Source of the DNA: a virus
Taxonomy: Duplodnaviria > Heunggongvirae > Uroviricota > Caudoviricetes
Reading direction: 5' to 3' (one strand)
IMG/VR virus record: IMGVR_UViG_3300046820_000635
Length of the DNA: 64,000 nucleotides
Every line of letters begins with the position of its first letter. The stretch's first letter is position 1. The notes beneath the pieces were generated by a model. It was not told the origin of the DNA and made no database searches. It was given only the letters and a program-made list of their open reading frames with translations. Shown here in pieces: positions 6,398-60,089 of this stretch. Position numbers and translations under genes: made by a program.

Positions 6398-6538
6398 AAA
6401 GAAAATATATGATTGATAAACCATTACCACCAGCAACAAAATATTGGTGTGACGCATGTGGAACTTTAGAAAGTCCAGATAAACACAAAAATATTTTTTG
6501 TAAGTTGTTTAAATGGTTAGATAGTGTTTTCTTTTGAT

Positions 6539-8202: not shown

Positions 8203-8717
8203 CAGCATGGGTAGACGCTCTTAAAGAGTCAAGCATTCCTGAGTATGCTAAAGACACAAAACTCAACATTGATGCAGTTATCAAACGTTCAACACTGCCT
8301 GTTGAAGAAGCTGAAGCTGTTGCATTAGCGGCAGCATTTGCAACAGGCAATAGCAAGTTATGGACTTGGGTCCATAGTCAACTTGCAGATCGTAAAGAAG
8401 CAGATGCCGCCTTGACAGCCGCTAGCATTATGGCACAAAACAACGTCTGGTATCCCTACGTTGAAATGGCCGATGATGAACAGCTAAAAGGCTTGCCAGC
8501 ACAGTTGCGCATGAATGCTATCGCAAGCCACGGCGGAACTACAAAGGCTCGTTTCGAAGCATACAGTTTGGCAGCTAGTATTGTGGGCAAGTGTCACTTC
8601 TGTGTTAAGGCACACTACGAAACACTCAAGAAGGAAGGTTACACTGTAGAACAACTTCGTGACATCGGACGTATTGCCGCAGTAATGACCAGTGTTTCTA
8701 GAGTAGTAGCTAACTGA
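8199..8717 (+). CDS. AhpD-like alkylhydroperoxidase / carboxymuconolactone decarboxylase family protein
   Basis: GKCHFCVKAHYETLKKEG CxxC-H motif characteristic of AhpD. ATGA overlap with the upstream gene. GGAG RBS. Confidence 0.7.
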   Translation: MTAWVDALKESSIPEYAKDTKLNIDAVIKRSTLPVEEAEAVALAAAFATGNSKLWTWVHSQLADRKEADAALTAASIMAQNNVWYPYVEMADDEQLKGLPAQLRMNAIASHGGTTKARFEAYSLAASIVGKCHFCVKAHYETLKKEGYTVEQLRDIGRIAAVMTSVSRVVAN

Positions 8718-13497: not shown

Positions 13498-14079
13498 ATG
13501 CTAACTGATATTATGATCGACATGGAGACACTCGATGTACTCCCTACTGCAACTATTCTTACTATTGGAGCAGTAAAGTTTGACCCGTTTGGCGATGATG
13601 TAAAAGATCCAAAATGTGAAAAGTTTTATGTTCGTGTAGATGTTGATAGTTGCGATGCTATTGGTTGTACTGTAAGTCCTGCTACTTTAGAATGGTGGAG
13701 TAAACAAGATCAAGCAGCACAAGACGAAGCATTTGATCCTGCAAATCGTATCAAGATTGAAGATGCTATGGCACAGCTTTATAAGTTTTGCTGGGGAGCA
13801 AAACGAGTATGGAGTCACGGTGCAGGATTTGATGTTATTATCTGCGAACACTTATTTAGAAAGCTGGGCCGAGCAGTTCCTTGGAGCTTCTGGGAGGTAC
13901 GTGATACTCGTACACTATTTGATATCGGTATTAATCCTAACCGCCCTCCTGTTTTAAAGCATCATGCTTTAGAAGATGCGTGGAATCAAGCAGTAGGTGT
14001 CCAGAACGTTTACAAAGCGCTACGATCTTCTACAATGCTTGACGGAACTTATATTAGTCCTCTGGCATCTCAGAGATAA
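13498..14079 (+). CDS. DEDDh 3'-5' exonuclease (DnaQ-like)
   Basis: MIDMETLD (Exo I), SHGAGFDV (Exo II), HHALEDA (Exo III). Confidence 0.7.
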   Translation: MLTDIMIDMETLDVLPTATILTIGAVKFDPFGDDVKDPKCEKFYVRVDVDSCDAIGCTVSPATLEWWSKQDQAAQDEAFDPANRIKIEDAMAQLYKFCWGAKRVWSHGAGFDVIICEHLFRKLGRAVPWSFWEVRDTRTLFDIGINPNRPPVLKHHALEDAWNQAVGVQNVYKALRSSTMLDGTYISPLASQR

Positions 14080-14133
14080 ATATTTTTTGTTAGCACCTGA
14101 TGGGCTAACATCGGGCATAATGCCCAAATTAGA

Positions 14134-14150
14134 TCTTACTTTATAAGGAG
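14134..14150 (+). promoter_or_regulatory. Conserved 18-nt element TCTTACTTTATAAGGAGA upstream of dnaK
   Basis: Identical copy sits upstream of the hsp20 gene at 16073-16090. Confidence 0.4.
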
Positions 14151-14157
14151 ATAGACA

Positions 14158-16041
14158 ATGTCTAAGATCATCGGTATTGACCTCGGCACCACCAATTCAT
14201 GCGTGGCTGTTATCGAGAATGGAACTTCCAAAGTTATTGAAAATGCAGAAGGTGCAAGAACAACACCTAGTATCGTCGCCTATGCAAATGACGAAATCCT
14301 AGTTGGTGCATCAGCAAAGCGTCAAGCAGTTACAAATCCCAAAAATACAATCTATGCAGCCAAGCGTTTAATCGGACGTAAGTTTAAAGAACAGGCTGTA
14401 CAAAAAGATCTCGGTCTAATGCCATATGAAATCTACGAAGCAGGCAACGGTGATGCATGGGTTCGTGCTCAAGGCAAAGAACTAGCACCACCACAGATTA
14501 GCGCAGAAGTCTTGCGCAAAATGAAAAAAACAGCAGAGGATTATCTAGGTGAAGAAGTTACTCAAGCGGTTATCACAGTTCCCGCATATTTTAATGACAG
14601 CCAAAGACAGGCTACAAAGGACGCTGGAAAGATCGCAGGCTTGGAAGTACTCCGTATTATTAACGAGCCTACTGCGGCAGCTCTTAGTTATGGCGTTGAT
14701 AAAACTGACAAAGCTGATCGCAAGATTGCTGTTTACGACCTTGGTGGCGGTACATTCGACGTATCAATCATTGAAATCGCGAATGTTGACGGTGACAAAC
14801 AAATCGAAGTACTAAGTACTAACGGCGACACTTTCTTGGGTGGCGAAGACTTTGATCAGCGTATTATGGATTTTCTGGTTGATACATTCAAACAGGAACA
14901 GGGCATTGATCTAACTAAAGATATGCTGGCCCTACAGCGGTTAAAAGAAGCCGCTGAAAAGGCTAAGATTGAGCTGTCTAGTTCTGCACAAACAGACGTT
15001 AACTTGCCCTACATTACAGCAGATGCAACAGGTCCTAAGCACATGAATGTCAAGTTGACTCGTGCTAAACTAGAAAGTCTTGTTGACGAACTAATCCAAC
15101 GTAGTATTGCACCATGTAAAACTGCTATGCAAGATGCTGGCGTAACCGCTAGCGATATTGACGAAGTTATTCTTGTTGGCGGTATGACACGTATGCCAAA
15201 GGTACAAGAAGCTGTTGAGAAGTTGTTTGGTAAGGCTCCTCGAAAGGATGTCAATCCGGACGAAGCAGTTGCTGTCGGCGCTGCTATTCAAGGTGCTGTG
15301 CTAGGTGGTGATCGTAAAGACGTTCTATTGCTAGACGTTACTCCATTGAGCCTAGGTATCGAAACACTAGGCGGTGTAATGAGCAAGTTGATTCAAAAGA
15401 ATACGACTATTCCGACTAAGTCTAGTCAAACATTCTCAACAGCTGAAGACAATCAACCTGCCGTAACTATCAAGGCCTACCAAGGTGAACGTGAACTATG
15501 CCAACACAACAAACTGTTAGGAGAGTTTAATCTCGAAGGTATTGCACCAGCTCGTCGTGGACAACCGCAGATCGAAGTTACCTTTGATATCGATGCTAAT
15601 GGTATCATGCATATCTCTGCCAAAGACAAGAGTACAGGTAAAGAAAATAAAATCACTATCAAGTCTAACAGCGGATTGAGTGACGATGAAGTTCAACGTA
15701 TGATTCGAGAAGCAGAAGAAAATGCCGAAGCCGATAAAAAGGCACGTACTCTTATTGAGACACGAAATCAAGCAGAAGCTATGGTGCATGAACTCAAGAA
15801 AGATACAGAAGATCTAAAAGACGAGCTTACTGACACACAACGTAGCGATGCCGAAGCTGCTATCCAAGCAGTGGCAGACGCAGGCAATGACGTAGATGCT
15901 ATCAAATCAGCAATCGAGAAACTGACTACAGTAGCGGTTTCTTTTGCACAGAAAAAACAGCTTAAAGAATCTGGTACAACACCGGACCAAGCTGCACAGG
16001 ATGATGTAGTTGATGCTACTTTTACTGAGAGCAAAAACTAA
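14158..16041 (+). CDS. dnaK: Hsp70 chaperone (DnaK-like)
   Basis: [26 protein letters not shown], complete 627 aa. AAGGAG RBS. Confidence 0.9.
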
Positions 16042-16072
16042 TCATAAAGAGTACCGTAATGGACTCTATTGA

Positions 16073-16090
16073 TTCTTACTTTATAAGGAG
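16073..16090 (+). promoter_or_regulatory. Conserved 18-nt element TCTTACTTTATAAGGAGA upstream of hsp20
   Basis: Identical to the element at 14134-14150 upstream of dnaK. Confidence 0.4.
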
Positions 16091-16096
16091 AAACAT

Positions 16097-16528
16097 ATGA
16101 ATCAACTAGCAAGAATAGACGCTTTAAACAGAGCATTGATTGGATTCGACACCATGTTCGATCAAATGGAACGCCGTTTCGCAAACAGCGTATCAAATAA
16201 CTATCCACCTCATAATATCATCAAGGTCGGAGAAAATAACTACAAGATTCAGTTGGCAGTAACAGGATTTAACAAATCCGAAGTTAGCGTAACTGTAGAA
16301 AACAATGTGCTGATTGTCAAGGGCGAAAGTATGACAACAGAGTGGCCTTCCGAAGCTTACCTCTATCGTGGTCTTGCTACCCGCGATTTTGTCAAAGAGT
16401 TTCCTCTTGCCGAACATATCGAAGTAGTTGGAGCACAAATCGAAAACGGCCTTTTGATCATTAGTTTGATTCGCAACATTCCAGAATCTGCGAAGCCTAA
16501 AGTGATTGACATCGTCGAGATTAAGTAA
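16097..16528 (+). CDS. Small heat shock protein (Hsp20/alpha-crystallin, IbpA-like)
   Basis: NYKIQLAVTGFNKSEVSVTVENNVLIVKGE alpha-crystallin domain. 143 aa. Confidence 0.8.
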   Translation: MNQLARIDALNRALIGFDTMFDQMERRFANSVSNNYPPHNIIKVGENNYKIQLAVTGFNKSEVSVTVENNVLIVKGESMTTEWPSEAYLYRGLATRDFVKEFPLAEHIEVVGAQIENGLLIISLIRNIPESAKPKVIDIVEIK

Positions 16529-17162: not shown

Positions 17163-17708
17163 ATGAGTCTAAAAGATATTACCAAAGACCTCCACCATGA
17201 GGCAGAAACAACAAAGTTCGCTAAGATGCTGCTTAGTGGCAAGATTGGCAAAGAAGACTACAGAAACTATCTGTATAACTTAATGGCAGTATACGATCCA
17301 ATCGAATGGTACTGTCAGCGTCAAGGATTCCTTGTCGCAATGCCAGACTTACCTCGTCTAAAATCAATCTATGCAGATTTCATGGAGCTAGACGACGGAT
17401 CTTACTGTTACCTAACTCCAGCAACACTTGAATACCAAGCATACTTACACAAACTAGGTAACGATGAACAACGTAAACACCTTGTTAAAGCGCATCTATA
17501 TTGCCGCCATATGGGCGACTTATTCGGTGGCCAAATCATTAAGAAGCAGGTAGCACATATTTCAAGCGGTAAGTTCTACGACTTTGAAAATGCTGATGCT
17601 ATGAAGATGGCTATTCGCGTAACGCTTACCGACGACTTAGGTGACGAAGCTCGTGTAGCATTTGAATACGCTATTAAGATGATGCGAGATTTGTATAATG
17701 GAGAGTAA
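17163..17708 (+). CDS. Heme oxygenase (HO-1 family)
   Basis: LKDITKDLHHEAETTKF...YRNYLYNLMAVYDPIEW and AHLYCRHMGDLFGGQIIKK match the proximal-His and GDLSGGQ helix motifs of heme oxygenase. Confidence 0.7.
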   Translation: MSLKDITKDLHHEAETTKFAKMLLSGKIGKEDYRNYLYNLMAVYDPIEWYCQRQGFLVAMPDLPRLKSIYADFMELDDGSYCYLTPATLEYQAYLHKLGNDEQRKHLVKAHLYCRHMGDLFGGQIIKKQVAHISSGKFYDFENADAMKMAIRVTLTDDLGDEARVAFEYAIKMMRDLYNGE

Positions 17709-18381
17709 AGTTTGGGACTCACTGATTGCTGTACAACAGTACTTTGAAGAGTCATTTAATAATACAGGAAAGGAAGTCTATGAGACGGGTATGGATCGCT
17801 TTAACAGCCCTGGTTGGGTTAACCGTGTTTGGACCAGTGGGTCTTATCGTCGTGCTCACGTTGATGTTGTGGATGCTAGGAAAACAAAAGGACTGTGGAT
17901 GATGCACTGCTGTGTGTTTCCTCATACACACAATCCGGCACCAATCTTTGGTTTTGATGTTATTGCAGGCAAGAATAAAATCACAGGTTGTTTTTATGAC
18001 TACAGCCCTGCAGGCGATCCCGAACACCCTATGCTTGACTGGTTCGCAGACGAAGCACAACAACTAGAATGGGTTAAGACACGCAAGTTACCCGAGTGGG
18101 CTGAACGTATCTTTAGTACCAGTATGGTAGCTGCTGCTAATGTTAGTGACGAGACCGAACTTGCACAGATTGTAGACATGGCCTATCGTGGAATCGATAC
18201 TTACCTGCAATCAGTAGGCAATACCAACAATACAGCACATGACACAACAGACGCACAAAACTTCTATTGCGAAAATCAAAAGATGAATCCGCATACACCA
18301 AAAGTTATGGTCAGTCTTGGACTTAGCGAAGAAGACGTAAAGGTCTTTATTCAGGATTGTCTGTTTCCTGAAATCAAATAA
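17698..18381 (+). CDS. Ferredoxin-dependent bilin reductase (PebS/PcyA/PcyX family)
   Basis: RRAHVDVVDARKTKGLWMMHCCVFPHTHNPAPIFGFDVIAG matches the FDBR core (R.AH.D......L...H.V.FP......P.FG.D...). Overlaps and follows the heme oxygenase gene. Confidence 0.7.
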   Translation: MESKVWDSLIAVQQYFEESFNNTGKEVYETGMDRFNSPGWVNRVWTSGSYRRAHVDVVDARKTKGLWMMHCCVFPHTHNPAPIFGFDVIAGKNKITGCFYDYSPAGDPEHPMLDWFADEAQQLEWVKTRKLPEWAERIFSTSMVAAANVSDETELAQIVDMAYRGIDTYLQSVGNTNNTAHDTTDAQNFYCENQKMNPHTPKVMVSLGLSEEDVKVFIQDCLFPEIK

Positions 18382-18671: not shown

Positions 18672-18755
18672 GGTTTTCTTGCTCTAGATTAAACTCAGCG
18701 TTTAATTGCTGCCCCCGTGTATCTAAATACTATACCGATTACCGGGAGCGAATCA

Positions 18756-19247
18756 ATGAAAAGAACAATAGTAGGATTGGGGATTACTCTGGCCGTATAC
18801 ACGACATACGCAGCAGAAATCCAACATAGCTTTAATAGTCCGTCATTTAGTGGTGTAGGATATAGCAGCCATGTTCTTACACTTAAACAACTAGAAGATC
18901 AGCAGAAAGATAAAAACAAAGCTGCGATCGACGCATTAAAAGCTGCTGCTGAAAGAGAAGCAGCAAATACTCCACAGGCTAGATTTAAAGCCAGCATGGA
19001 AACAAGAGTCTACAGCGAGTTAGCTAAACGTATTAGCGATAGCCTATTCGGTAGCACAACTACAGCACCTACCTGCAATGGCGGTGGATCTAGTTCTTCT
19101 AGCAGCCCTTGCGCTGCTATTGAGTTAGTAGGACAAAACATTTCTTGGTGGATTACAGGATCTAACATTATTGTTAGAATTCAGGATGCTAATGATCCTA
19201 ACACATACACAGAAATGACCATGCCATATGCGGCATTTAGCATCTAA
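18756..19247 (+). CDS. CsgF-like curli assembly component (secreted)
   Basis: Signal peptide MKRTIVGLGITLAVYTTYA. Mature N-terminus EIQHSFNSPSFSGVGYSSHVLTLKQ parallels CsgF [29 protein letters not shown]. GGGAG RBS. Confidence 0.6.
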   Translation: MKRTIVGLGITLAVYTTYAAEIQHSFNSPSFSGVGYSSHVLTLKQLEDQQKDKNKAAIDALKAAAEREAANTPQARFKASMETRVYSELAKRISDSLFGSTTTAPTCNGGGSSSSSSPCAAIELVGQNISWWITGSNIIVRIQDANDPNTYTEMTMPYAAFSI

Positions 19248-19258: not shown

Positions 19259-20215
19259 ATGACAAAAACAATTATATCCTTAGCAATCATTGCATTATTG
19301 AGCGGATGTGCAACAAGTTCAGCTATACATGAAAAAGTCACAGGCAAACAATTTGATGAGCCAGTAGTTGAACAGAGTACATACTTAAAGAAAGATACAA
19401 ACAAGTTAAAGCCGCCAGCAACTGGTCCCATTCCTATTGCCGTATACGGATTTCAGGACAAGACTGGACAACGTAAGAGCATTCCGAACATTGCTAGTTT
19501 GAGTTCGGCAGTAACACAAGGTGCAGACAGCTATTTGATTAAAGCATTACAAGATGTAGGTGACCAGCGTTGGTTTACTGTTCTTGAAAGAGTTGGTTTA
19601 GAAAACCTAATCAAAGAGCGTCAAATGATTCGACAGATGCGTGAGCAGTATCAAGGTAAGGATGCAAAGCCTTTACCTCCTATGATGTTTGCTGGCGTAA
19701 TAGTTGAAGGTGGTATTATAGGCTATGATTCAAATACTCTAACTGGTGGTAGCGGAGTTAGATTTTTAGGAGTCGGAGCAACTACACAATACCAAAGCGA
19801 TACTGTAACTGTTAATCTACGCACAGTTAGCGTAAGCACAGGAGAAGTATTAACCAGTGTTACTATCACAAAAACTGTGTTAAGTTACATGGACAAGTTC
19901 GGAGTTCTGAAGTTTGTTGAGCAAGGTACACAAAGTATCGAAGCAGAAACAGGCGGCAGTATCAACGAAAGTATCAACAAAGCTGTGAATCTAGCAGTTC
20001 AAGCAGCCGTTGTTGGTACTATACATGAAGGTGCAAGGAAAGGGCATTGGAACTTTAAGGAGGAGAAAAAAGATGAGTTGGTTCAATCACAAACCTCGCC
20101 GCAAAGAGCCGCCGAAACTGTACCCTCACAACCACAGCCCAGCGACAAAGAAAGCGCTGGATCAGGCAAAGCAGTTGAGTCCGACAAAACAAACGGACAA
20201 AAAGAAGTAAAATAA
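19259..20215 (+). CDS. CsgG-like outer-membrane lipoprotein secretion channel
   Basis: Lipobox LLSGCATSS. IAVYGFQDKTGQ...RWFTVLERVGLENLIKERQMIRQ...AGVIVEGGIIGYDSNTLTGGSGVRFLGVGATTQYQSDTVTVNLRTVSVSTGEVLTSV aligns along the whole E. coli CsgG sequence. Confidence 0.85.
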   Translation: MTKTIISLAIIALLSGCATSSAIHEKVTGKQFDEPVVEQSTYLKKDTNKLKPPATGPIPIAVYGFQDKTGQRKSIPNIASLSSAVTQGADSYLIKALQDVGDQRWFTVLERVGLENLIKERQMIRQMREQYQGKDAKPLPPMMFAGVIVEGGIIGYDSNTLTGGSGVRFLGVGATTQYQSDTVTVNLRTVSVSTGEVLTSVTITKTVLSYMDKFGVLKFVEQGTQSIEAETGGSINESINKAVNLAVQAAVVGTIHEGARKGHWNFKEEKKDELVQSQTSPQRAAETVPSQPQPSDKESAGSGKAVESDKTNGQKEVK

Positions 20216-20228: not shown

Positions 20229-21065
20229 GTGTTACAAGCCGCAGTGAAAATAAAAATGAAATTAGGACAAACAAATACAATTAAAAATATAGTCCTGGTA
20301 ACGGCATTGGCAATGGCTAGCATCACAAATGCTCAGTCAACAGTTGCTACAGGCCCAAACAAGGTCTATATCGAACAAGTCGGTAATAGCAATACAGTTA
20401 CCATTCAGCAAGTTGGCGGAACTAACGACGTTGGCGGAACAGCCGTTACAGCATCATCAGTTGCAGCCAATGGAGTAACCACATTAACTCCAACAGCACC
20501 TAGTTCTTCGAACTATGCTACTATCACAGGTAGTTCGAATACTGTTACTCTAAATCAAACAGGTAACGGCAACAGTGCGCAGTACAATATTCAAGGTAAC
20601 GACAATGTCTATACCAGCAACGTTACAGGACACGGTAATCAAACTAGGTTAACTGTGGGCGATGTTAACAATGCTAGTAATCTACGTAATGTTATTACAG
20701 AAACAATCGTTGGCGACACAAACTTGATTATACAAGATATTGTTGGTAGTGATATTACCAGTATTACAGGTATTACAGGCAACTCAAACCAAGTTACAAA
20801 AAGTTTGTTAAGCTCAAACGGTACTAGCGACATTAGTATTTCTGGTAATAGTAACGTTCTAAACATTCAGCAAACAGACGCTGCTGGTGCAAACGGGCAT
20901 TATCTAAAACAAGTTATAGCAGGTGACTACAACAGCATCACTACTCAACAGCAAGGTACTAATGATACCACTGTTGATATCCGTGCTACAGGTAGCCACA
21001 ATACTATTACTGTAAGAACTAGTAGTTCAGCTATCGTTAATCCTGCAACAGCAATCGTGAGGTAA
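20229..21065 (+). CDS. Curlin-repeat secreted protein (CsgA/CsgB-like amyloid subunit candidate)
   Basis: Signal peptide, then degenerate repeats of the S-x5-Q-x-G-x-G-N-x-A-x3-Q type: NSNTVTIQQVGGTNDVGG, SSNTVTLNQTGNGNSAQYNIQG, GHGNQTRLTVGDVNNASNLRNVI and others. Confidence 0.6.
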   Translation: MLQAAVKIKMKLGQTNTIKNIVLVTALAMASITNAQSTVATGPNKVYIEQVGNSNTVTIQQVGGTNDVGGTAVTASSVAANGVTTLTPTAPSSSNYATITGSSNTVTLNQTGNGNSAQYNIQGNDNVYTSNVTGHGNQTRLTVGDVNNASNLRNVITETIVGDTNLIIQDIVGSDITSITGITGNSNQVTKSLLSSNGTSDISISGNSNVLNIQQTDAAGANGHYLKQVIAGDYNSITTQQQGTNDTTVDIRATGSHNTITVRTSSSAIVNPATAIVR

Positions 21066-21068: not shown

Positions 21069-22172
21069 ATGCGAGTCCTTTTGTTAGCTCTACTGCTAAC
21101 ATTTTCTGTGGCTTCAAATGCCAATGGCAATATTGGCAAAGTCACAGAAAATAAAGGAAATGCCTGTGAAGTTGAAAGGAACAAGAAGAAGATGTCCGGC
21201 ATTAAAGGTGCCGACATTGAATCTTTGGATACCTATATAACACAGGCATGCGTAAGCACCTTGACATTTACCGATGATACCAAAGTCAAAGTTACAGAAA
21301 ACAGCCGTCTGCTTATTGACGATTTTGTTTTCGATCCTAAGAAAAGCGATGCAGGCAAGCTCGCTCTCAAAGTGGGTATGGGAACCGTTAGATACGCTAG
21401 CGGGCAGATTGCTAAGAACAATCCACAACAAGTCGCAATAAAAACCCCTTCGGCAACTATCGCAGTTCGCGGTACTGATTTCTCTATGACTGTGGACGAA
21501 GCAGGACAGAGTCTTGTGGTCCTACTGCCCAGCTGCAAAGAAGAAAAAGACATGAAGCAGTATGAGCTGGAAGAGAATCGCTGTAAAGTTGGTAAGATTG
21601 AAGTTAGTACAGATGCGGGTAAGGTAGTGTTGGATCAAGCATTTCATGCTACCTATGTTACCAGTACAAACATAATGCCGACTCCGGCTACAGTTATCAA
21701 CACCATCGAGGCCAAAATCAACAACAACCTAATATTGGTTAAGCCTATGGAAGTATCTACTGCTATCCGTGAACATGCCAAGACTAAGCAGGATCGAGAA
21801 CTAGAGGAAATCGAAGCAGAAGCTTCACGCAGACTTGCCGCAAGAGTTAAAGAAGCAGCAGAAGAAATAGAAAGAGCTAGACTGTTGGCACTAGCAGTTG
21901 CCTTGGGTACGGCTAGCTGTAATGCCAGTACCAGTATCTGTGTAAACTGGGAAAACACCGATGCCAGCACTATTCAAACCAAAGGCAAAGGCACTGCTTT
22001 TCGTACCAACGAGGATCACTATGCTGAAGTTAAGACACAGGGCTATAGTTCAAATACAAGCATTACAATAATACACAACGATGCATCGGCAACAGAAGTT
22101 ATCGGTGACGGAAGCGCAGGCGGAAATATGATTTATATCAAACAGAATGCAGGAGTGCTAAGAAGAAGATGA
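21069..22172 (+). CDS. Secreted FecR-domain protein with C-terminal coiled coil
   Basis: Signal peptide MRVLLLALLLTFSVASNA. IAIKTPSATIAVRGTDFSMTV matches the FecR beta-motif. Confidence 0.5.
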   Translation: MRVLLLALLLTFSVASNANGNIGKVTENKGNACEVERNKKKMSGIKGADIESLDTYITQACVSTLTFTDDTKVKVTENSRLLIDDFVFDPKKSDAGKLALKVGMGTVRYASGQIAKNNPQQVAIKTPSATIAVRGTDFSMTVDEAGQSLVVLLPSCKEEKDMKQYELEENRCKVGKIEVSTDAGKVVLDQAFHATYVTSTNIMPTPATVINTIEAKINNNLILVKPMEVSTAIREHAKTKQDRELEEIEAEASRRLAARVKEAAEEIERARLLALAVALGTASCNASTSICVNWENTDASTIQTKGKGTAFRTNEDHYAEVKTQGYSSNTSITIIHNDASATEVIGDGSAGGNMIYIKQNAGVLRRR

Positions 22173-24064
22173 TGACACGCATATTACAGTTCTTGGCATT
22201 GTTGGTACTTTCTGTCAGTGCGCAGAGTCAAACATATTACAATGCTATTGCTACTGCCTATGTTACAACAACTATCAGTCAGCATGTTGTATTTGATGCA
22301 AATATGCAAGCAGGTGGAACATTTACCTTTAGTGTATTAGCACACAATGGCGGTGGACGTGCCGGGCAAAGCGACACAGCCAACGTAAAGATAGAATTCT
22401 ACAACAGTAGTGGCGGATTAGTGTCGCAGGTAAACACATCGCACTCTGCTAACTTACCAAACCCTAACGCTGTGTGTGGTAATCCTTGTATCGATACAAG
22501 CGTTCCTTGGACAACACTGACTGTTAGTAAAACACTATCTGCGGCGGAAGCTGGAACAGTGGCCTATGCCCGAGTTAGTATGTATGGTATTGATGGAAGC
22601 TATTGGGCAGGTGATTACGGTCCGTGGTATCGTGCTCCTACTCTGCAACTTAACAGTGGTGGCAACTTATTGTATAACCCAGAGTTTGGTCCTTACAACA
22701 ACATAACAGCACAGGGTTGGACCAGTAATCCAGGGTTCGGTGCTTGTCAAGGTGCATGGGGTGGTAGTAATGCCTGTATCGTTAACAGCGATGGTGTACC
22801 TGGTTCTAGTACAGTTGGTTTAGTTGCTAACCAGAATGGTGGAGGCCCTAGTGCAACAGGTGGTACAACTAGCGGTACTGCTGGCGGATATAATAACACT
22901 ATGACAGTAACCAACGCAGGTACCGGTGCAACAGCTGGTGGTCCTCCCCCACCAGCCCCAACAGTTATTACCGGGTCATCACCGACAGTTTATATAACAA
23001 ACTACTATCCCACAAGTAATAACAGTCCTGTAAGTGAAGGAGCATCCAATGCTTTTGATGGTAATCCGAATACCAAATATCTAAACTTCGATAAACTAAA
23101 TGCAGGTGTAACTATTAAATTAAATTCGGGTCGAGTAGTTACAGGATTTAAACTTACTACAGCTAACGATTTTAGTGGGAGAGATCCTACTAGTTATAAA
23201 CTCTACGGAAGTAATAACGGAAGTACCTGGACTCTGATTCAGGAAGGTGCATTATCACTTAGCGAAAATCGACTTACAGTTAGTTCTGAGATTACTGTAA
23301 CTAATACTAATGCCTATGTTTACTATTATATTTTCTTTCCAACTACAAAAGCAGGTACAGGTTGTGGATTAGATTGTGATAGTATGCAGATTGCCGAAAT
23401 CACATACATCTATGATGCTAATAATACAACAACATCTACAGCTACAGGTTCATCAGTTTCTAACCCAGGAAGTTTATGCTGCGGAGGAAATGCTTCTTCG
23501 TTTAATGCTAATACTTCTAACTCTGCAAAAGTTTTATTATTCACTAATAGAACAACAGCAGATAGTCAAGTTTATATTGAACAAATCGGTATTGGTAATA
23601 ATATAGAAGTATTTCAATCCGGCACTAGACAAAACTATGCAAAATATTACGGCAATGGATCAAACAATGATGTAACTATTATACAGACAGGAAATGCCTC
23701 TACTTCTGTGAACTATACAGATTTGTCAATAACAGGCAATTCAAATAATGTTAATGTTACACAACAAAGCAGCGGAGGCGGCAAAGGAGCGTTTGTTACT
23801 ATATCTAATAACTCGAATATTGTTAATGTTACGCAAAAAGATTCTGGAAGCCATTATTTAGATCTAGCACTATCCGGTGGAAATAAAACTGTAGGTGTAC
23901 TACAACAGGGATCCGCTAGTCATATGGCTACTATTAATCTAAGTGGAAATCCTACCAGTTTAAATCTAACTCAAAGCGGAAGTACACAAAACTTTTATTC
24001 TATTACTCACAACTGTGCAACAGCAGGTGGGTGTGCTCCTATTACAGTGACACAAGGCAACTAA
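22169..24064 (+). CDS. Large secreted protein: N-terminal beta-rich domain, Gly/Thr/Pro linker, F5/8-type-C (discoidin-like) domain, C-terminal curlin-like repeats
   Basis: Signal peptide. NAFDGNPNTKYLNFDK...TGFKLTTANDFSGRDPTSYKLYGSNNGSTW discoidin-like. C-terminal repeats SQVYIEQIGIGNNIEVFQSG, SNNDVTIIQTGNAS, NSNNVNVTQQSSGGGKGA, NKTVGVLQQGSASHMA. Confidence 0.55.
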   Translation: MMTRILQFLALLVLSVSAQSQTYYNAIATAYVTTTISQHVVFDANMQAGGTFTFSVLAHNGGGRAGQSDTANVKIEFYNSSGGLVSQVNTSHSANLPNPNAVCGNPCIDTSVPWTTLTVSKTLSAAEAGTVAYARVSMYGIDGSYWAGDYGPWYRAPTLQLNSGGNLLYNPEFGPYNNITAQGWTSNPGFGACQGAWGGSNACIVNSDGVPGSSTVGLVANQNGGGPSATGGTTSGTAGGYNNTMTVTNAGTGATAGGPPPPAPTVITGSSPTVYITNYYPTSNNSPVSEGASNAFDGNPNTKYLNFDKLNAGVTIKLNSGRVVTGFKLTTANDFSGRDPTSYKLYGSNNGSTWTLIQEGALSLSENRLTVSSEITVTNTNAYVYYYIFFPTTKAGTGCGLDCDSMQIAEITYIYDANNTTTSTATGSSVSNPGSLCCGGNASSFNANTSNSAKVLLFTNRTTADSQVYIEQIGIGNNIEVFQSGTRQNYAKYYGNGSNNDVTIIQTGNASTSVNYTDLSITGNSNNVNVTQQSSGGGKGAFVTISNNSNIVNVTQKDSGSHYLDLALSGGNKTVGVLQQGSASHMATINLSGNPTSLNLTQSGSTQNFYSITHNCATAGGCAPITVTQGN

Positions 24065-24080: not shown

Positions 24081-26135
24081 TTGATGCAAATCAAACTAAA
24101 ATCTTTGCTGTTAAGCCCGTGGACAGCAGTAATCACACTGGCACTAGTACTAGGTATCCGCGTTAGCGATCCAGCGTTTGTAGAAAGCGTTAGACTACGT
24201 TATTTTGACACACTAATCACTGCTAAAGAACCTACACAAAATAATATTGTTACGGTTAACATTGACGAAGAATCTTTAGATAAACTAGGACAATGGCCTT
24301 TACCGAGGGCAGAGTATGCTAAAATTATTAAAGACTTGTATGATAGGGGCGCTGGCCTTGTTGTTCTCAACGTGCTTATGGCTGAGCCTGATCGCACTGG
24401 TGGTGACTCAGCTCTTGCCCAGGCTCTTTCTCAATATCCAGTAGTTCTAGGTAGTGTACCTAGCGACAAAACAAAAAACATTCCACGCAATCCGGGCAGT
24501 GCTGTTCTGGGACCAGAGTTTCTTGATCAAATCATAACCTATCCCGGAATCATTGCCAATATACCTCCTCTAGAAAAATCAGCAGCAGGGATTGGTATTG
24601 TAAATACTCTACCAGAAGTTGATGGTGTAAATCGCCGATTACCTTTGATTGCCGGTGTTGACGGCAAACTATACCCAAGCATAGCTATGGAGACACTGCG
24701 AGTAGCAGCAGGCGATTCAACCTTTCAAGTAAAGCTCAACGAGAATGGCGTTGAGAAAATGCGTATTCCAAAGTTTGGCCCTATTACTACGGACAACTTT
24801 GGACGCATCTGGGTCGATTGGAGCCAGGAGAATCAAAGTGTAAGTCTAACTAACTTGCCCAAAGATCTCGCTGGCGCTATCGTTATTGTTGGACCTACCG
24901 CAGCAGGGGTGAGCAATCCAGTACCGACTGCTAAGGGTGCAGTATGGCCGCATGATGTTCAAGCCGCAGTTATTGGTACAATGGTCAATGGCGTTGTTAT
25001 ACAGAGGCCTGACTATGCAGACGGTCTAGAAATACTTGCTATTGCATTAGCAGGATTAATTTTATTATTTTTAACAAGGTGGACTTATGTTGGATTGGGT
25101 GCAACTATTGTTATTGCTGTGGGCGGCTACGTTGCTAGTAGCTACGCTTTCAGTAACTTTCTATTCTTATTTGATACTACTGCCTTTACAGCTGGCACAG
25201 TCTTGGTCGCTTTGCATGCCTATGGTGTCAAGTTTGTAAGTGAGTTTTTACAGAAGCAGGCAATCAAGAAACAGTTTGCTGGCTACTGCTCAAAAGAAGT
25301 AGTAGAGATGCTACAGAAAGATCCAGACTTAATCAAGCGTGGTGTGCGTAAAGACGTGTCAGTTATGTTTAGTGACTTGCGTGGATTTACTCCTATTGGT
25401 GAACATTACGGTGATGATGTAGGCGGACTAGGCAAGTACATGAACGGCTACATGGATGCTATTAGTCGTCCTATTATGGACAACAAGGGTATGGTTATCA
25501 AGTATGTAGGTGATGCGTCAATGCACATCCATGGAGCTCCTATTGAAGATCCTAACCACGCTAGAACTATTGTTGCTGTTGGCCTACAGATGTTAGATGC
25601 TGTTGATGCCTATACAAAAGAAATGGAAGCACAAGGATTACCACCAGCCGCAATGGGTTGGGGTTGTAACACAGGTATTGGCTTCATTGGCGAGATGGGT
25701 TCAACTGATAGGCACAGCTATGACATCTTAGGCGACATGGTTTCAACTGCGGCTCGCTTAGAAGCACGTTGCAAGGCTTATGGCGTACTATGTATTATTG
25801 GTGCTGAAACATACAACCGCACTAAAGATGATTTCTTCTACTTGTGTATCGATAACTTACAACCCAAGGGCAAGTCAGTAGCAGACTTAATATATACAGC
25901 ACTACGCCCCAACGGTGAGGACTGGAGTAAAGACCTAGTTAAGTACAACGAAATGCAAGCCCTGTACAAGGCTAAGAAGTTTGACGAAGCTGCTGCTATG
26001 TGCTCTAAGATGAAAGGTACATTCGGTGGACAAATGGACAAGTATTATAAGATTTGGATTGAACGTTGTGACTTCATGAAACAGCAAGATCTAGGCCCAG
26101 ATTGGCAGGGAGAGTTTATAGCGAATGAAAAATAA
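24081..26135 (+). CDS. CHASE2 sensor domain - multi-TM - class III adenylate/guanylate cyclase
   Basis: N-terminal TM plus an extracytoplasmic CHASE2-like region, about 4 TM helices, then VSVMFSDLRGFTPIGEHY...GDASMHIHGAP (cyclase metal-binding Asp and transition-state residues). Confidence 0.75.
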   Translation: MMQIKLKSLLLSPWTAVITLALVLGIRVSDPAFVESVRLRYFDTLITAKEPTQNNIVTVNIDEESLDKLGQWPLPRAEYAKIIKDLYDRGAGLVVLNVLMAEPDRTGGDSALAQALSQYPVVLGSVPSDKTKNIPRNPGSAVLGPEFLDQIITYPGIIANIPPLEKSAAGIGIVNTLPEVDGVNRRLPLIAGVDGKLYPSIAMETLRVAAGDSTFQVKLNENGVEKMRIPKFGPITTDNFGRIWVDWSQENQSVSLTNLPKDLAGAIVIVGPTAAGVSNPVPTAKGAVWPHDVQAAVIGTMVNGVVIQRPDYADGLEILAIALAGLILLFLTRWTYVGLGATIVIAVGGYVASSYAFSNFLFLFDTTAFTAGTVLVALHAYGVKFVSEFLQKQAIKKQFAGYCSKEVVEMLQKDPDLIKRGVRKDVSVMFSDLRGFTPIGEHYGDDVGGLGKYMNGYMDAISRPIMDNKGMVIKYVGDASMHIHGAPIEDPNHARTIVAVGLQMLDAVDAYTKEMEAQGLPPAAMGWGCNTGIGFIGEMGSTDRHSYDILGDMVSTAARLEARCKAYGVLCIIGAETYNRTKDDFFYLCIDNLQPKGKSVADLIYTALRPNGEDWSKDLVKYNEMQALYKAKKFDEAAAMCSKMKGTFGGQMDKYYKIWIERCDFMKQQDLGPDWQGEFIANEK

Positions 26136-26298: not shown

Positions 26299-26327
26299 TA
26301 AAAAAAGCACCCTATGGGTGCTTTTTA
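26299..26327. terminator. Bidirectional rho-independent terminator
   Basis: AAAAAAAGCACCC-tat-GGGTGCTTTTT between convergent gene blocks. Confidence 0.75.
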
Positions 26328-26654
26328 ACTACTTCCACTTTTGGCTTCTTTATCATCGTCGCCAACTTTATTAATTTCTTTTTCAGCTTCAACACGCTCG
26401 TATTCAATAGTCTTGCCACGCAGGTGTAAGACTGTGTTGACCTTTTGATTTAAACGAATCAAATCGTTATCTAGCATACGGATACGATCAATAAGTGCAA
26501 TCAAAACGGTATTGGCATCACTGATAACTGGTTTAACTTCTTTAGTAGCCCATTCCCAAACGTATTTGATAATGAAGCCCATTCCAACTGCCATGACAAT
26601 TGGAAAACCATACTTATTGACTAACTCAACTACATCCATTCTCGTCTCCAACAT
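26325..26654 (-). CDS. Small membrane protein, paralog A
   Basis: N-terminal TM. ALIDRIRMLDNDLIRLNQKVNTVLHLRG parallels the motif in the 26835..27116 ORF. Confidence 0.5.
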   Translation of the reverse strand: MLETRMDVVELVNKYGFPIVMAVGMGFIIKYVWEWATKEVKPVISDANTVLIALIDRIRMLDNDLIRLNQKVNTVLHLRGKTIEYERVEAEKEINKVGDDDKEAKSGSS

Positions 26655-26838
26655 TTACTGTGTATCCTCTTACGAATGCTTCTAACGGATCCACTTTAAC
26701 TAACATTTGGCGCCCATTCACATTGGTAAATCTAAATAGATCACCGTGTTTGTATCCTAGCTTATCTGTGTTAAGTTCTTCATCTAAAAGAATTCTATTA
26801 GGATTTAGATCCCAGGAGTAATCGAAATGTAGCATCAA
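26626..26838 (-). CDS. hypothetical protein
   Basis: 70 aa ORF between the two paralogs on the minus strand. Confidence 0.35.
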   Translation of the reverse strand: MMLHFDYSWDLNPNRILLDEELNTDKLGYKHGDLFRFTNVNGRQMLVKVDPLEAFVRGYTVNVGDENGCS

Positions 26839-27116
26839 TCTCTCCTAGCATCATTCTTACCGTCTGCTCGAGCAATACGGTCAACGTCCGGACGGAGTCC
26901 TAATGCATTGGATACAATAGTGTCGATGCGGACAACATCGTGATTCATGGTCTTTACACGATTGTCCAAGGCTGTAATAATACCAGCCATACCTTTAATA
27001 CTGCCCAAAACTCCCTGTAACAACAGTTTGATCGTGAGATACACAAAGTATCCGCCGGCTAAGGCTGCTGCTACTGGCATACCTAAATCGCCAATAATCT
27101 TGAAAATATCGCCCAT
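26835..27116 (-). CDS. Small membrane protein, paralog B
   Basis: Two TM segments then ALDNRVKTMNHDVVRIDTIVSNALGLRP. Confidence 0.5.
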   Translation of the reverse strand: MGDIFKIIGDLGMPVAAALAGGYFVYLTIKLLLQGVLGSIKGMAGIITALDNRVKTMNHDVVRIDTIVSNALGLRPDVDRIARADGKNDARRD

Positions 27117-27209: not shown

Positions 27210-28025
27210 ATGAAGATTAAGTTAGTATCAGATCTACACTTAGAGTTCAGCGATTACAACGTTAAAAACGATGACGGGTGTGATGTGTTAATTCTCAGTG
27301 GCGATATCATGGTTGCTGAAAAGGTTCTAAAACCCGAAAGTGAGTATGGTATTAGATTCCGAGACTTTTTAAAACGTGTAAGTTTCCAGTTTCCTCATGT
27401 TATCTATGTGGCAGGTAATCATGAGTTTTACGGAGGATATTGGGTCAAAAGTCTTAACGAGCTGCGTATGGCCTGTGGTGTGCATGACAATGTCTACTTC
27501 CTAGAACGTGAAATCAAGAAGATCGACGATGTGACTTTTATCGGGGGTACACTATGGACCGACATGAACAAGTTCGATCCTATTACACTACATGCCGTTC
27601 GTGATATGATGAACGATTACCGAAGTATCCGTAACGATCAGGCAGGCTATACAAACTTAAAACCTGCAGATACGTGCCAACGACACAAACTAACGCTTGA
27701 CTATATTAAGAGTGTGGTAGCAGAACGCCCAGACGAAAAGTTTGTTGTTGTTGGACATCATAGCCCTAGCTTCCAAAGTGTACACGAACAGTATAAAGGC
27801 GAGTTCTTAATGAACGGTGCTTATCACAGCAGCCTTGAAGAGTTTATTATAGATCGTCCACAGATTAAACTTTGGACACACGGTCACACTCATCACCCAT
27901 TTGATTATCAAATTGGGGAAACTCGTATAGTATGCAATCCCCGTGGCTACGAGTCGATTAGGGGTAACGGATCTTTCTGGGGTGAAGATACTGGTTGGAA
28001 TCCTAACATAGTATTAGAAGTATGA
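27210..28025 (+). CDS. Calcineurin-like metallophosphoesterase
   Basis: VSDLHLE, GDIM, GNHEF, GHHS motifs. Confidence 0.7.
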   Translation: MKIKLVSDLHLEFSDYNVKNDDGCDVLILSGDIMVAEKVLKPESEYGIRFRDFLKRVSFQFPHVIYVAGNHEFYGGYWVKSLNELRMACGVHDNVYFLEREIKKIDDVTFIGGTLWTDMNKFDPITLHAVRDMMNDYRSIRNDQAGYTNLKPADTCQRHKLTLDYIKSVVAERPDEKFVVVGHHSPSFQSVHEQYKGEFLMNGAYHSSLEEFIIDRPQIKLWTHGHTHHPFDYQIGETRIVCNPRGYESIRGNGSFWGEDTGWNPNIVLEV

Positions 28026-28953: not shown

Positions 28954-29213
28954 ACATCTATAATAAAAATACCACATGGGAAACAATCGTAAGAGATATC
29001 GAGGATTTCCAGAACCGTCGACCAAAAGTTAACATACCTGAAGAGACTAGTAATATTACCTGTGTTGCGGGAGATGTTGAAATGTTGAAAGTATCAAAAG
29101 ATGGATTTTATGTGCGTGGCGTAAAAGTTCCCGCAGATGATAAAGAAGCAGAGACTGTTTATAATGCCTTCAAGAGTTTTTTAATGTGGGCTGAACTTAA
29201 CAAGAGGCAATAA
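28950..29213 (+). CDS. hypothetical protein
   Basis: 87 aa ORF, ATGA-coupled. Confidence 0.35.
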   Translation: MNIYNKNTTWETIVRDIEDFQNRRPKVNIPEETSNITCVAGDVEMLKVSKDGFYVRGVKVPADDKEAETVYNAFKSFLMWAELNKRQ

Positions 29214-29881
29214 TGGGGTTATTAGATATTTTTACAGAAATAACTGAAGCTACAGGAAAATATGAGGAAGGTGGAAAGAAGTCTGTCCCATATACAATAT
29301 ATCGGACTGTAAACATTGTTGATAACGAACCTGTAGCTGTAATCGAGCCAGACTTTGATAGGGGGCCTTGGATAGCAGGAGGTGCTTGTCTTCGTTGGTA
29401 TCAAGGACAGCCAGTAGGCGATAGCGACATTGATGTATTCTGTGCCAACGCTAAACAGGCTGCTGATGTTATTGCTCGCATTAAAAGCTACGGACGTTAT
29501 ACAGTCAAGTTTGAAAGCGAAAATGCTGTAACATTGCAATACCGTAGCGAACACTACGGCAACTGCATAGGAGTAGATCACTGGATCATTCAAGTAATCA
29601 CCAAACGTTATTACACCAGTGTTCGAGAGATTGTTGATAACTTCGATGTGAGTGTATGTCAACTAGGTACAGCAGGATTTGATTGGGCTCTAGGTGAACA
29701 TACTGCTCGAGATATTCGCGAAAAAAATCTAAGAATGAATATTCCTTTACAACCAGATGCTGTTAAGCGTTTGTCAAAGTACTGGACTTACGGATACCGT
29801 CCGGTACCAAATCTGCTAGATGCCATTATCAATAATCCTACAGGTAAATGGGAGTTTGAATCATCGGAGGATTACTCATGA
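29213..29881 (+). CDS. Nucleotidyltransferase-fold protein (minimal pol-beta-type NTase)
   Basis: GGACLRWYQGQPVGDSDIDVF fits the hG[GS]x9-13DhD signature. Confidence 0.5.
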   Translation: MGLLDIFTEITEATGKYEEGGKKSVPYTIYRTVNIVDNEPVAVIEPDFDRGPWIAGGACLRWYQGQPVGDSDIDVFCANAKQAADVIARIKSYGRYTVKFESENAVTLQYRSEHYGNCIGVDHWIIQVITKRYYTSVREIVDNFDVSVCQLGTAGFDWALGEHTARDIREKNLRMNIPLQPDAVKRLSKYWTYGYRPVPNLLDAIINNPTGKWEFESSEDYS

Positions 29882-33971: not shown

Positions 33972-34046
33972 GCGCTATTAGCTAAGTGGCATAGCAGGAG
34001 CCTCTAAAACTCCGTAGCGTGGGTTCGATTCCCACATAGCGCACCA
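33972..34046 (+). tRNA. tRNA with CUA anticodon (amber-reading suppressor-type tRNA), CCA encoded
   Basis: Perfect 7-bp acceptor GCGCTAT/ATAGCGC, D arm GCTA-AGTGGCA-TAGC, anticodon arm GGAGC-CTCTAAA-ACTCC (U33, A37), T arm GTGGG-TTCGATT-CCCAC, discriminator A, CCA. Confidence 0.65.
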
Positions 34047-38575: not shown

Positions 38576-38935
38576 ATGTCACAAAAAACATTCACCATCG
38601 ACAAGTTCTATGTCTTGTCAGCAATCAACAAAGCAGGAAAGCGTGTCTACTACGACACTGATTCACATTCGGGCGGTTATCCCTACTGGAGCACTTTTAC
38701 GGCTCACGCATGTTCTAAAAAGTTCGTTAAACTAGACGACATTCCTACATTCTCAAGCACTGACTATATGCGTCGTGATGTTAACAGCATCGAAGTACTA
38801 GAAGTCAAAATACAGGCCAAAGTAGTACAAACTACTGAAATCGTTTCAGAAGCCCGTGCAAAGGCCGAGGCAGAAATTGCTAAGATTCAAAAAGAACTAG
38901 CACAAAAAATCGCAAGACTGGAGAATGTAAAATGA
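38576..38935 (+). CDS. hypothetical protein
   Basis: 119 aa, C-terminal coiled coil. Confidence 0.4.
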   Translation: MSQKTFTIDKFYVLSAINKAGKRVYYDTDSHSGGYPYWSTFTAHACSKKFVKLDDIPTFSSTDYMRRDVNSIEVLEVKIQAKVVQTTEIVSEARAKAEAEIAKIQKELAQKIARLENVK

Positions 38936-39948
38936 AAAAATACGATACACTTGTCCTCATCGGACGCTTTCAGCCAATCCATAATGCTCATCTAGAGATT
39001 ATCAAACGTAGCACAGCATTGTGCAACAAATTGATTATCATCATAGGTTCAGCTAATCAACCACGCACTTACAAGAATCCATTTGTAGTTGAAGAACGAG
39101 CACGTATGATTCGTGCTGCAACTAGTGGACTTGCATTACAAGTTACCATTGAAGCCAACACAGATACCATTTATAATGATCAAGCATGGGCGGTGCGTAT
39201 CCAATCCATTGTGAACAAGCACACTCTTCCGGGTGAAAAGATTGCTGTCATTGGCCACAAGAAAGATGACAGCTCATTCTACTTGGACATGTTCCCCCAA
39301 TGGGGTTACGAAAATGTGGAGGAAATCGAGCCACTGAGCGCGGTTAACATTCGTGACCTGTACTTCAAACGTGACTGCAATATGAAGTTCATTAAGGCTG
39401 TGGTTCCTGAAACTACTTATGACTTCCTTAACGAATTCAAAGACACTGCCGAATACGAACAAATCATTCGTGAGCGTGAGTTCTTGATTGAACACAATAA
39501 ACAGTATGCCAGCTTGAAGTATCCTCCGATCTTCAGCACTGCTGATGCTGTGGTTATTTGCTCTGCTCACGTGTTGATGATCAAACGCCGTGCCGAGCCA
39601 GGTCGAGGCTTGTGGGCACTGCCAGGTGGTTATGTAAATGCTAATACTGACAAGAGTGTTGAAGACGCTGCTATTCGCGAACTCCGCGAAGAAACGATGA
39701 TCAAAGTTCCTGCTCCAGTATTGCGTGGCAACATTGTTCGTAGTAAAGTATTTGATGCTATTGATCGTAGTCCGAGAGGGCGTATCATCACTCATGCGTT
39801 TTACATTCAATTACCCGACGGCGAACTGCCTAAAGTGAAAGGCAGCGACGATGCAGAGAAAGCACGTTGGGTCCCTATTGCAGAGGTCGAGAGCGAAGAG
39901 TGCTTCGAAGATCATTACGAAATTCTGAGTTCATTCCTCGGTGCTTGA
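38932..39948 (+). CDS. nadM: Bifunctional NMN adenylyltransferase / Nudix ADP-ribose pyrophosphatase (NadM-like)
   Basis: LVLIGRFQPIHNAH (nucleotidyltransferase H-x-x-H). Nudix box GGYVNANTDKSVEDAAIRELREETMI. Confidence 0.8.
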   Translation: MKKYDTLVLIGRFQPIHNAHLEIIKRSTALCNKLIIIIGSANQPRTYKNPFVVEERARMIRAATSGLALQVTIEANTDTIYNDQAWAVRIQSIVNKHTLPGEKIAVIGHKKDDSSFYLDMFPQWGYENVEEIEPLSAVNIRDLYFKRDCNMKFIKAVVPETTYDFLNEFKDTAEYEQIIREREFLIEHNKQYASLKYPPIFSTADAVVICSAHVLMIKRRAEPGRGLWALPGGYVNANTDKSVEDAAIRELREETMIKVPAPVLRGNIVRSKVFDAIDRSPRGRIITHAFYIQLPDGELPKVKGSDDAEKARWVPIAEVESEECFEDHYEILSSFLGA

Positions 39949-60084: not shown

Positions 60085-60089
60085 TATAT

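Follow-up and report, generated by a model that had tools for sequence, protein, structure and literature searches.

In the ocean, curli cassettes are widespread among phages, and what they do is recognised as a puzzle (PMC7029224, PMC9004378, PMC9599517). A viral type VIII secretion system (T8SS)/curli cluster that includes a gene for FecR and one for an adenylate cyclase (AC) was described in 2022; an alphaproteobacterial origin was inferred for it and it is expressed in metatranscriptomes (PMC9599517). CHASE and transmembrane segments go unmentioned there, and its passages on the AC contain no active-site analysis. Two other papers on the phage 'curli operon' do not mention the cyclase. The gene considered here is a predicted CHASE2 receptor-type cyclase at 24081..26135 (+) of a 64,000-nucleotide (64-kb) stretch of DNA from a large uncultivated Caudoviricetes virus (IMG/VR record IMGVR_UViG_3300046820_000635). 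This whole stretch is called the window.

The CHASE2 cyclases CyaD1, CyaD2 and CyaK of Sinorhizobium meliloti make 3',5'-cyclic AMP (cAMP) when a protein signal is perceived through NsrA, a protein of the outer membrane. Without its CHASE2 domain, a CyaD1 construct makes cAMP constitutively, and the regulon also includes smc02177, which encodes a FecR-domain protein (PMC5498481, PMC13001267). The Burkholderia 'BiofilmReg' operon consists of a response regulator, a LysM-FecR protein and a CHASE2 histidine kinase (PMC5192318).

Since the cyclase family and its curli linkage were published in PMC9599517, they are already known, and the window adds a new lineage to this family. The new elements are the pairing of FecR with the CHASE2 cyclase, a phage-specific active-site pocket, mosaicism among the domains and a re-reading of the genes labelled 'HK'. 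Compared with an earlier sequence-only reading of this DNA, the additions are the residue Ser555, FecR as the likely sensory partner and the fact that the cassette had already been published. We hold with moderate confidence that the gene encodes a working receptor adenylate cyclase, and that its CHASE2 domain and a secreted FecR-domain protein couple a curli-linked event at the envelope or surface to cAMP in the infected cell.

The open reading frame (ORF) is confirmed exactly at 24081..26135 (+), with a TTG start and a product of 684 amino acids (aa). The second codon is an ATG at 24084, which is the likelier start because the resulting 683 aa equal the length of the orthologue in phage Melnitz. 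The gene and its parts are as follows.

24081..26135 (likely start 24084), + strand: predicted CHASE2 receptor-type class III adenylate cyclase (Pfam, alignments, model)
24135..25061, + strand: periplasmic CHASE2 sensor domain, aa 19-327 (Pfam CHASE2, hydropathy)
25017..25220, + strand: three transmembrane helices (TMs), aa ~313-380 (hydropathy)
25224..25349, + strand: helical linker from the membrane to the cyclase, aa 382-423 (conservation, model; aligns with the 6fht linker)
25350..25859, + strand: class III cyclase catalytic domain, aa 424-593 (Pfam, PDB alignments, model)
25860..26132, + strand: conserved helical C-terminal extension, aa 594-684 (homologue alignments, model)

The Pfam match to CHASE2 (PF05226) over aa 19-327 has an E-value of 6.2e-42 and 144 bits against a cut-off of 26.3, and the match to Guanylate_cyc (PF00211) over aa 424-593 has an E-value of 3e-14 and 53.4 bits against a cut-off of 21.9. 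Hydropathy places TM1 at aa ~8-28, ahead of CHASE2. The protein therefore has the layout of a CHASE2 sensor, with one TM before the domain, three after it and a cytoplasmic output domain, which makes CHASE2 periplasmic and the cyclase cytoplasmic. The linker helix is proposed to be the signal-transducing helix. The C-terminal extension is kept in bacterial homologues down to Bradyrhizobium (coverage to residues 678-683) and is missing in phage HTVC008M. Over its full length the cyclase matches phrog_35576 (E=6.6e-190), a family that PHROGs labels 'unknown function'.

The fold agrees with the domain assignment. For aa 382-684, a diverse alignment yielded an AlphaFold model with a pLDDT of 92.4 and a pTM of 0.90, in which a long linker helix lies at the N-terminus and the C-terminal extension (aa 594-684) is helical. 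A Foldseek search with this model matches CyaC, CyaB and Cya2 with an E-value of 1e-16 and a TM-score to the target of 0.84-0.88. The full-length model, built from a shallow alignment, was unusable (pLDDT 37.6), so the aa 382-684 model alone was used. In a phmmer search the cyclase matches 6fht, a Cya2-derived cyclase chimera, with E=4.5e-20 (75 bits) and CyaB with E=5.9e-18 (68 bits).

The active-site residues were read from alignments to Pseudomonas aeruginosa CyaB and Synechocystis Cya2 and from a table of 82 homologues.

D432 and D478: metal binding; counterparts of the CyaB and Cya2 metal Asp residues, without variation across the 82 homologues
K474 and D548: adenine-specifying pair, ATP type
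R544: phosphate binding
R559: transition-state Arg, present
S555: transition-state Asn position; Ser instead of Asn, also conserved in the window's clade and in Melnitz

Under the specificity rule that was applied, Lys with Asp, Thr or Ser indicates ATP and Glu with Cys or Gly indicates GTP; this predicts ATP as the substrate and cAMP as the product. The sequence-only reading had proposed a CHASE2 N-terminus, a multi-helix membrane anchor and a C-terminal cyclase, all of which are borne out by Pfam and hydropathy. The cyclase motifs that it quoted are found (FSDLRGFT at 430, KYVGD at 474). Loss of the two catalytic Asp residues, which it had named beforehand as fatal to the assignment, is not seen on alignment, as both D432 and D478 are retained. 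Its broader proposal of a cAMP/cGMP synthase is narrowed by Lys474/Asp548, which predicts cAMP and not cGMP.

The combination of Asp548 and Ser555 occurs in 9/82 homologues; these come from the window, its clade and the clade of Melnitz, and each is viral or lies on a viral-like contig. The remaining 73/82, which are bacterial homologues and HTVC008M-type phage contigs, have Ser or Thr at 548, and 72/73 have Asn at 555. In the 80 best IMG/VR loci the pocket is Asp/Ser in 75/79 readable copies and Thr/Asn in 4/79. Among representatives of the whole family (n=150), the Asp/Ser type is restricted to 10 clusters, all within the 33 best matches. As read from these alignments, most of the phage copies, but none of the cellular ones, carry a coupled pocket change, Ser/Thr to Asp548 and Asn to Ser555. 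Because Ser555 is one half of a coupled change, it is not a sign of decay.

The pocket could instead mean an altered function, with the protein acting as a very slow enzyme or a non-catalytic scaffold, or using another nucleotide or making a product other than cAMP. The transition-state Asn positions the ribose, and the coupled Asp/Ser pocket is found on viral or viral-like contigs only, the cellular homologues having Ser or Thr throughout and, with one exception, Asn. Mutants of this Asn in a mammalian cyclase lose most of their kcat (Yan et al. 1997, cited in PMC4215837), which counts for an altered function. Against it, the metal, phosphate and Lys/Asp adenine-specifying residues are all canonical. 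In Mycobacterium avium, the Lys/Asp adenylate cyclase Ma1120 has Ala in place of this Asn and is active, and putting the Asn back drastically lowers its activity (PMC4215837). Since Ma1120 is active without the Asn, Ser555 is compatible with activity, and an altered function is considered unlikely.

Regional conservation also bears on whether the enzyme works. Identities to the window sequence were taken as medians across the 80 best IMG/VR viral loci (L085-L164).

Linker: 95%, often 98-100%
Catalytic domain: 89%
CHASE2: 76%
C-terminal extension: 69%
TMs: 54%, the lowest part of the cyclase
FecR, N-terminal part: 51%

These medians make the cytoplasmic signalling core far more constrained than the envelope-exposed parts. 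With the linker and catalytic domain at 89-100% and the TMs at ~54%, the enzyme is therefore under selection, and the pattern indicates strong purifying selection on the cyclase core. The near-invariant catalytic domain argues for a working active site and against the altered function discussed above. The two halves of the protein do not always travel together. One locus (L124) is 83% identical in CHASE2 and 63% in the catalytic domain, and another (L129) is 56% identical in CHASE2 and 94% in the catalytic domain; this mismatch indicates recombination between the sensor and catalytic halves. Among the viral loci, CsgG and FecR split into types of ~75% and ~50% identity, and the cyclase is near 80% throughout.

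The cyclase is the last of six genes on the same strand, separated by gaps of at most 16 bases or overlapping. The other members of the cassette and its end are listed below.

18717..19247, + strand: CsgF-like cap protein for curli secretion (Pfam CsgF E=6e-6, above the cut-off; phrog_35372)
19259..20215, + strand: CsgG outer-membrane curli channel lipoprotein, lipobox LSGC (Pfam CsgG E=1.2e-51)
20229..21065, + strand: secreted curlin-repeat-like protein, candidate fibre subunit (Pfam Curlin_rpt E=0.0014, below the cut-off)
21069..22172, + strand: secreted FecR-domain protein with signal peptide (Pfam FecR E=3e-9; phrog_37870 E=1.3e-71)
22169..24064, + strand: secreted protein with an F5/8 type C domain (CBM32-like lectin) and C-terminal curlin-like repeats (Pfam F5_F8_type_C E=4.2e-10)
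26300..26326, no strand assigned: bidirectional intrinsic terminator A7-GCACCC-TAT-GGGTGC-T5, which closes the cassette (read from the sequence)

The CsgF-like protein probably starts at Met14, followed by a signal peptide, and is 32-33% identical to the CsgF of Melnitz and HTVC008M. CsgG is 43% identical to its phage orthologues and scores 188 bits with the NCBIfam CsgG model, which is under the equivalog cut-off. The product of 20229..21065 has four x6-Q-x-G-x2-N repeats, where shuffled sequences give 0.65, and is syntenic with the Melnitz 'curlin associated repeat protein'. The FecR family phrog_37870 is matched over its full length and carries the PHROGs label 'unknown function'. The product of 22169..24064 has five curlin-type repeats and matches the carbohydrate-binding region of PDB 7nsn (E=1.5e-15) and the curlin-repeat protein 8c50 (E=0.014). 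Signal peptides are present on all five products upstream of the cyclase; therefore, the cyclase domain is the only cytoplasmic output of the cassette. T4-type late promoters (TATAAATA) are not enriched in the window (1 site, ~4 expected), and sigma-70-like sites occur about as often as chance predicts.

No match to a sequenced phage was obtained by megablast with 18-28 kb, so the comparisons were made at the protein level. Orthologues of the cyclase occur in the methylophage Melnitz (gp104, 47% identical over the full length) and the pelagimyophage HTVC008M (gp019, 36%), in the same six-gene order. In sequenced phages CsgG is confined to the genomes that carry these orthologues, except for one unannotated 1.5-kb fragment. 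A relative of the cyclase is encoded on >566 IMG/VR viral contigs, and the protein database holds thousands, the top 120 of which are 81-100% identical to the window protein. Related contigs reach 373 kb, with a GC content of ~41%. The 373-kb contig has Hsp70, Hsp20, ClpS, heme oxygenase and bilin reductase genes followed by the cassette, as in the window. Among the 67 IMG/VR loci with at least 5.5 kb of upstream sequence, 64 have FecR beside the cyclase (62 upstream on the same strand and 2 downstream with the cassette inverted) and 3 do not. The window thus carries an AC orthologue and the order csgF-csgG-curlin-FecR-(curlin)-AC on a viral genome, which are the marks of the viral T8SS/curli cluster. 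The sequence-only reading had placed the cyclase beside a curli locus and suggested that the two are coupled. Both points hold, with CsgF (E=6e-6) and CsgG (E=1.2e-51) as neighbours and a synteny that is kept across phages only 36-47% identical. A phage origin of the gene, as had been assumed, is supported by the >566 IMG/VR contigs, phrog_35576, the 20-tRNA array, the permuted tmRNA and the homing endonucleases. Several relatives are placed in bacterial metagenome-assembled genome (MAG) bins, which could mean that the cyclase gene is cellular and comes from a mis-binned or contaminating bacterial fragment; this is scarcely credible, since the MAG contigs in question are short ones on which the phage cassette is present, cultured phages have the gene, and the window itself bears the tRNA array, tmRNA, homing endonucleases and PHROG families.

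Full-length cellular homologues are 27-32% identical; among the groups that have them are Bradyrhizobium, Methyloligellaceae, Erythrobacter, Arcobacteraceae and Elusimicrobia. When the search for homologues was repeated from the Bradyrhizobium protein, it returned Bradyrhizobium orthologues only. A FecR-domain gene lies within the 10-kb flanks of the cyclase at 43/68 cellular loci, in several phyla. This count was taken from the locus table and is a lower bound because the phage FecR served as the query. CsgG or CsgF was found in the 10-kb flanks of 0/68. The FecR partner in Bradyrhizobium is a 1924-aa protein with FecR, immunoglobulin (Ig)/cadherin and RTX features directly upstream of the cyclase. 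One alphaproteobacterium has a divergently transcribed TPR-FecR protein. The Arcobacteraceae partner (locus L052, 12775-15708) combines FecR with a TbpB-type beta-barrel lipoprotein and lies beside a Slam-like (TPR_Slam) translocon protein, which suggests surface display for some of the FecR partners. From this distribution we infer that FecR and the CHASE2 cyclase form an ancestral bacterial sensory unit, which phages would have joined to a curli secretion set; such an ancestral pairing would make FecR probably the periplasmic co-sensor of the cyclase.

Under the favoured reading, a receptor cyclase coupled to FecR and curli, the phage would make an inner-membrane receptor-type adenylate cyclase during infection, with CHASE2 facing the periplasm and joined through four membrane helices and the near-invariant linker helix to the cytoplasmic catalytic domain. 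This domain presumably dimerises and would convert ATP to cAMP. The co-transcribed secreted FecR-domain protein would serve as the periplasmic co-sensor. The FecR/CHASE2-cyclase pair may have been inherited as a unit from (alpha)proteobacteria and, in phages, would have been joined to a curli-type set made of the CsgG/CsgF channel, the curlin-like protein and the lectin-curlin protein. CsgG and CsgF are, by position only, candidates for the outer-membrane receiver of the signal. In this outside-in relay, an event at the surface or in the periplasm, such as fibre secretion or assembly or the binding of a ligand, would relieve an inhibition imposed by CHASE2 and raise cAMP. Rewiring of host catabolite or biofilm signalling by this cAMP, as the sequence-only reading proposed, is plausible. 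The S. meliloti cyclases, the Burkholderia operon and the expression of the viral cluster in metatranscriptomes are published findings that favour the receptor-cyclase reading.

Several points weigh against this reading. The transition-state Asn-Arg pair is incomplete, and Ser555 in place of Asn could lower turnover. The evidence for an interaction of FecR with CHASE2 is gene linkage, and FecR identity and CHASE2 identity are weakly correlated (rho 0.29, p 0.016), with relatedness as a confounder. The curlin identity of the products of 20229..21065 and 22169..24064 is sub-threshold. No cyclic nucleotide-binding receptor was found among the ~58 larger ORFs scanned in the window, and the window has no convincing dedicated cAMP phosphodiesterase. 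The known hosts of the related phages are streamlined cells, and a look at the literature on cAMP signalling in SAR11 yielded nothing useful.

A Metallophos gene at 27210-28025 (+) was considered as a cAMP phosphodiesterase and rejected, as it is a generic phage phosphoesterase (phrog_1649) with no PDB relative. It is a calcineurin-like metallophosphoesterase that matches PADLOC PDC-S10 (E=8.8e-12). It lies ~1 kb downstream of the cyclase in the window and is absent beside the cyclase in the 373-kb contig.

Between the cassette terminator and this gene are two small genes on the other strand.

26325..26654, - strand: small single-pass membrane protein, 109 aa (phrog_18771, E=1.8e-29)
26835..27116, - strand: second member of the same family, 93 aa, single-pass (phrog_18771, E=1.1e-29)

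The pair is homologous to two genes upstream of csgF in Melnitz and HTVC008M; in the window it is downstream and convergent. These proteins are found at 68-70/80 viral loci (70/80 for the member at 26325..26654) and at 0 bacterial loci. No Pfam domain, kinase domains included, was found in them, and they are probably the short 'histidine kinases' of PMC9599517. One of them has a faint holin match (E=0.0036), which is not significant.

A role in lysis timing has been proposed for the phage CsgGF by Buchholz et al. (PMC9004378). Extended to this locus, the module would time lysis or detect superinfection; the CsgG/F pore and the small membrane proteins would take part in lysis, and the cyclase would set its timing by reporting the status of the envelope. 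The presence of the two single-pass proteins with the cassette at most viral loci and the faint holin match are in line with this. The holin match is not significant, however, the cassette contains no lysin or spanin, and the secreted lectin-curlin and curlin-like proteins fit the display of a fibre better than lysis. This explanation, which we regard as quite improbable, is about the downstream role and does not clash with the synthesis of cAMP.

The sequence-only reading also suggested that the cyclase could interfere with cyclic-nucleotide-based anti-phage defence. The hits that could point to a defence or anti-defence cyclase acting on systems such as Pycsar or CBASS are the PADLOC PycC models, which match the catalytic domain with E=3.6e-13, and putative anti-defence genes occur elsewhere in the window (NAMPT with NMNAT-Nudix, and a precomputed Gad2 match). 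The PycC score of 47 bits is below that of ordinary cyclases (75 bits for 6fht, 68 for CyaB), so the match reflects the shared fold only. No effector gene was found near the cyclase. In addition, no Pycsar system resembles this one in its membrane sensor layout or in its linkage to FecR and curli, and the closest cellular relatives are housekeeping-type CHASE2 cyclases. With generic PycC matches and no nearby effector, the suggestion finds no support here and is very improbable.

A more specific scheme can be drawn for the receptor-cyclase reading. The cassette would be a trans-envelope sensor built by the phage, in which a lectin-tipped curli-like fibre, secreted via CsgG/F, reports contact with cells, particles or competing phages through FecR to CHASE2, and the Asp548/Ser555 cyclase sends a nucleotide signal by which the infection programme, such as the timing of lysis or aggregation, is tuned. 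This is speculative and fairly improbable as a whole. If true, a virus would possess a sense organ of its own for the environment, in hosts from which the entire pathway is missing.

The analysis changes how the cluster is read. The published 'AC' is a CHASE2 receptor, and the 'iron regulator FecR' is more likely an inherited co-sensor; the curli cluster is therefore recast as a signalling device with a measurable output, cAMP. Two cultured systems, HTVC008M/SAR11 and Melnitz/OM43, allow a direct test of the signalling reading, and the phage-specific change in the active site offers a simple mutational handle. The window adds a third lineage, which is very abundant and has much larger genomes, and so shows that the module also occurs outside the pelagiphages.

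The rest of the window has several other features. A heme oxygenase and a ferredoxin-dependent bilin reductase, at 17163-17708 and 17698-18381 (+), are directly upstream of the cassette and are also in the 373-kb contig; they form a pigment-pathway pair, and there is no sign of a cyanobacterial host. Protein quality control genes at 13498-16528 and 58333-58926 (+) encode a full-length Hsp70/DnaK (857 bits), Hsp20, a ClpS-like region (similar to locus L003) and ClpP, and are listed with an Rv2179c-like 3'-5' exoribonuclease. As a taxonomic marker, DnaK gave scattered matches. Oxidative-stress genes at 732-1280, 7250-7789 and 8163-8717 (+), for an Fe/Mn superoxide dismutase, an AhpC-type peroxiredoxin and a CMD (AhpD-like) protein, adjoin ribonucleotide reductase subunits.

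A salvage pair for NAD, at 38932-39948 and 41396-42796 (+), encodes a bifunctional NMN adenylyltransferase/Nudix protein (NMNAT-Nudix) and a nicotinamide phosphoribosyltransferase (NAMPT). We take this pair to resemble the phage NAD-reconstitution pathways that counter NAD-depleting defence. The gene at 29213-29881 (+) is assigned to Gad2 (PF26128, anti-Gabija family) in the precomputed annotation of the identical gene on a JGI contig, and the local Pfam scan found nothing in it at E<=0.001.

The window is also rich in RNA genes. A permuted two-piece tmRNA gene at 6333-6679 (+) (RF04321, 91.6 bits) directly follows a GIY-YIG homing-endonuclease-like ORF (5467-6342), and Melnitz also has a tmRNA upstream of its cassette. 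The dense array at 59999-63524 (+) holds 20 tRNA genes, among them a tRNA-Ile with anticodon TAT and one at 62682-62768 whose anticodon is undetermined. A solitary tRNA at 33972-34046 (+) has the anticodon CTA and is a putative amber suppressor (tRNA-Pyl according to ARAGORN; 62.7 bits with the Rfam tRNA model). The stop codons of the 74 plus-strand ORFs of at least 100 aa are TAG in 1, TAA in 45 and TGA in 28. The CTA tRNA and the rare TAG may reflect amber suppression or recoding elsewhere in the genome.

Compared with known systems, the window is closest to the clusters of HTVC008M, Melnitz and the pelagiphages, which share with it a full-length orthologue, the gene order and the pair of small membrane proteins. 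It differs in being a separate lineage with much larger genomes (contigs to 373 kb), and the HTVC008M cyclase, unlike that of the window, has no C-terminal extension and keeps the bacterial Ser/Asn pocket. The S. meliloti cyclases CyaD1, CyaD2 and CyaK, which were compared by description, are alike in having CHASE2 with a class III cyclase and an alphaproteobacterial affinity. Their pathway reads cAMP through a Clr/CRP-type regulator, and no Clr/CRP gene was found among the ~58 ORFs scanned in the window. The phage pocket is Asp/Ser, whereas the closest cellular homologues examined have Ser or Thr with Asn. The Burkholderia 'BiofilmReg' operon is similar in placing a secreted FecR-domain protein beside a CHASE2 membrane sensor and in its link to biofilm and surface (PMC5192318), but its output is a histidine kinase with a response regulator and not a cyclase, and the curli secretion genes are absent. 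P. aeruginosa CyaB (3r5g), Spirulina CyaC (1wc0) and Synechocystis Cya2 (2w01) have the same fold and, bar one, the same catalytic residues; they carry other sensor domains and have Asn where the phage has Ser555. The only documented active exception to this Asn is Ma1120 of M. avium, with Ala (PMC4215837).

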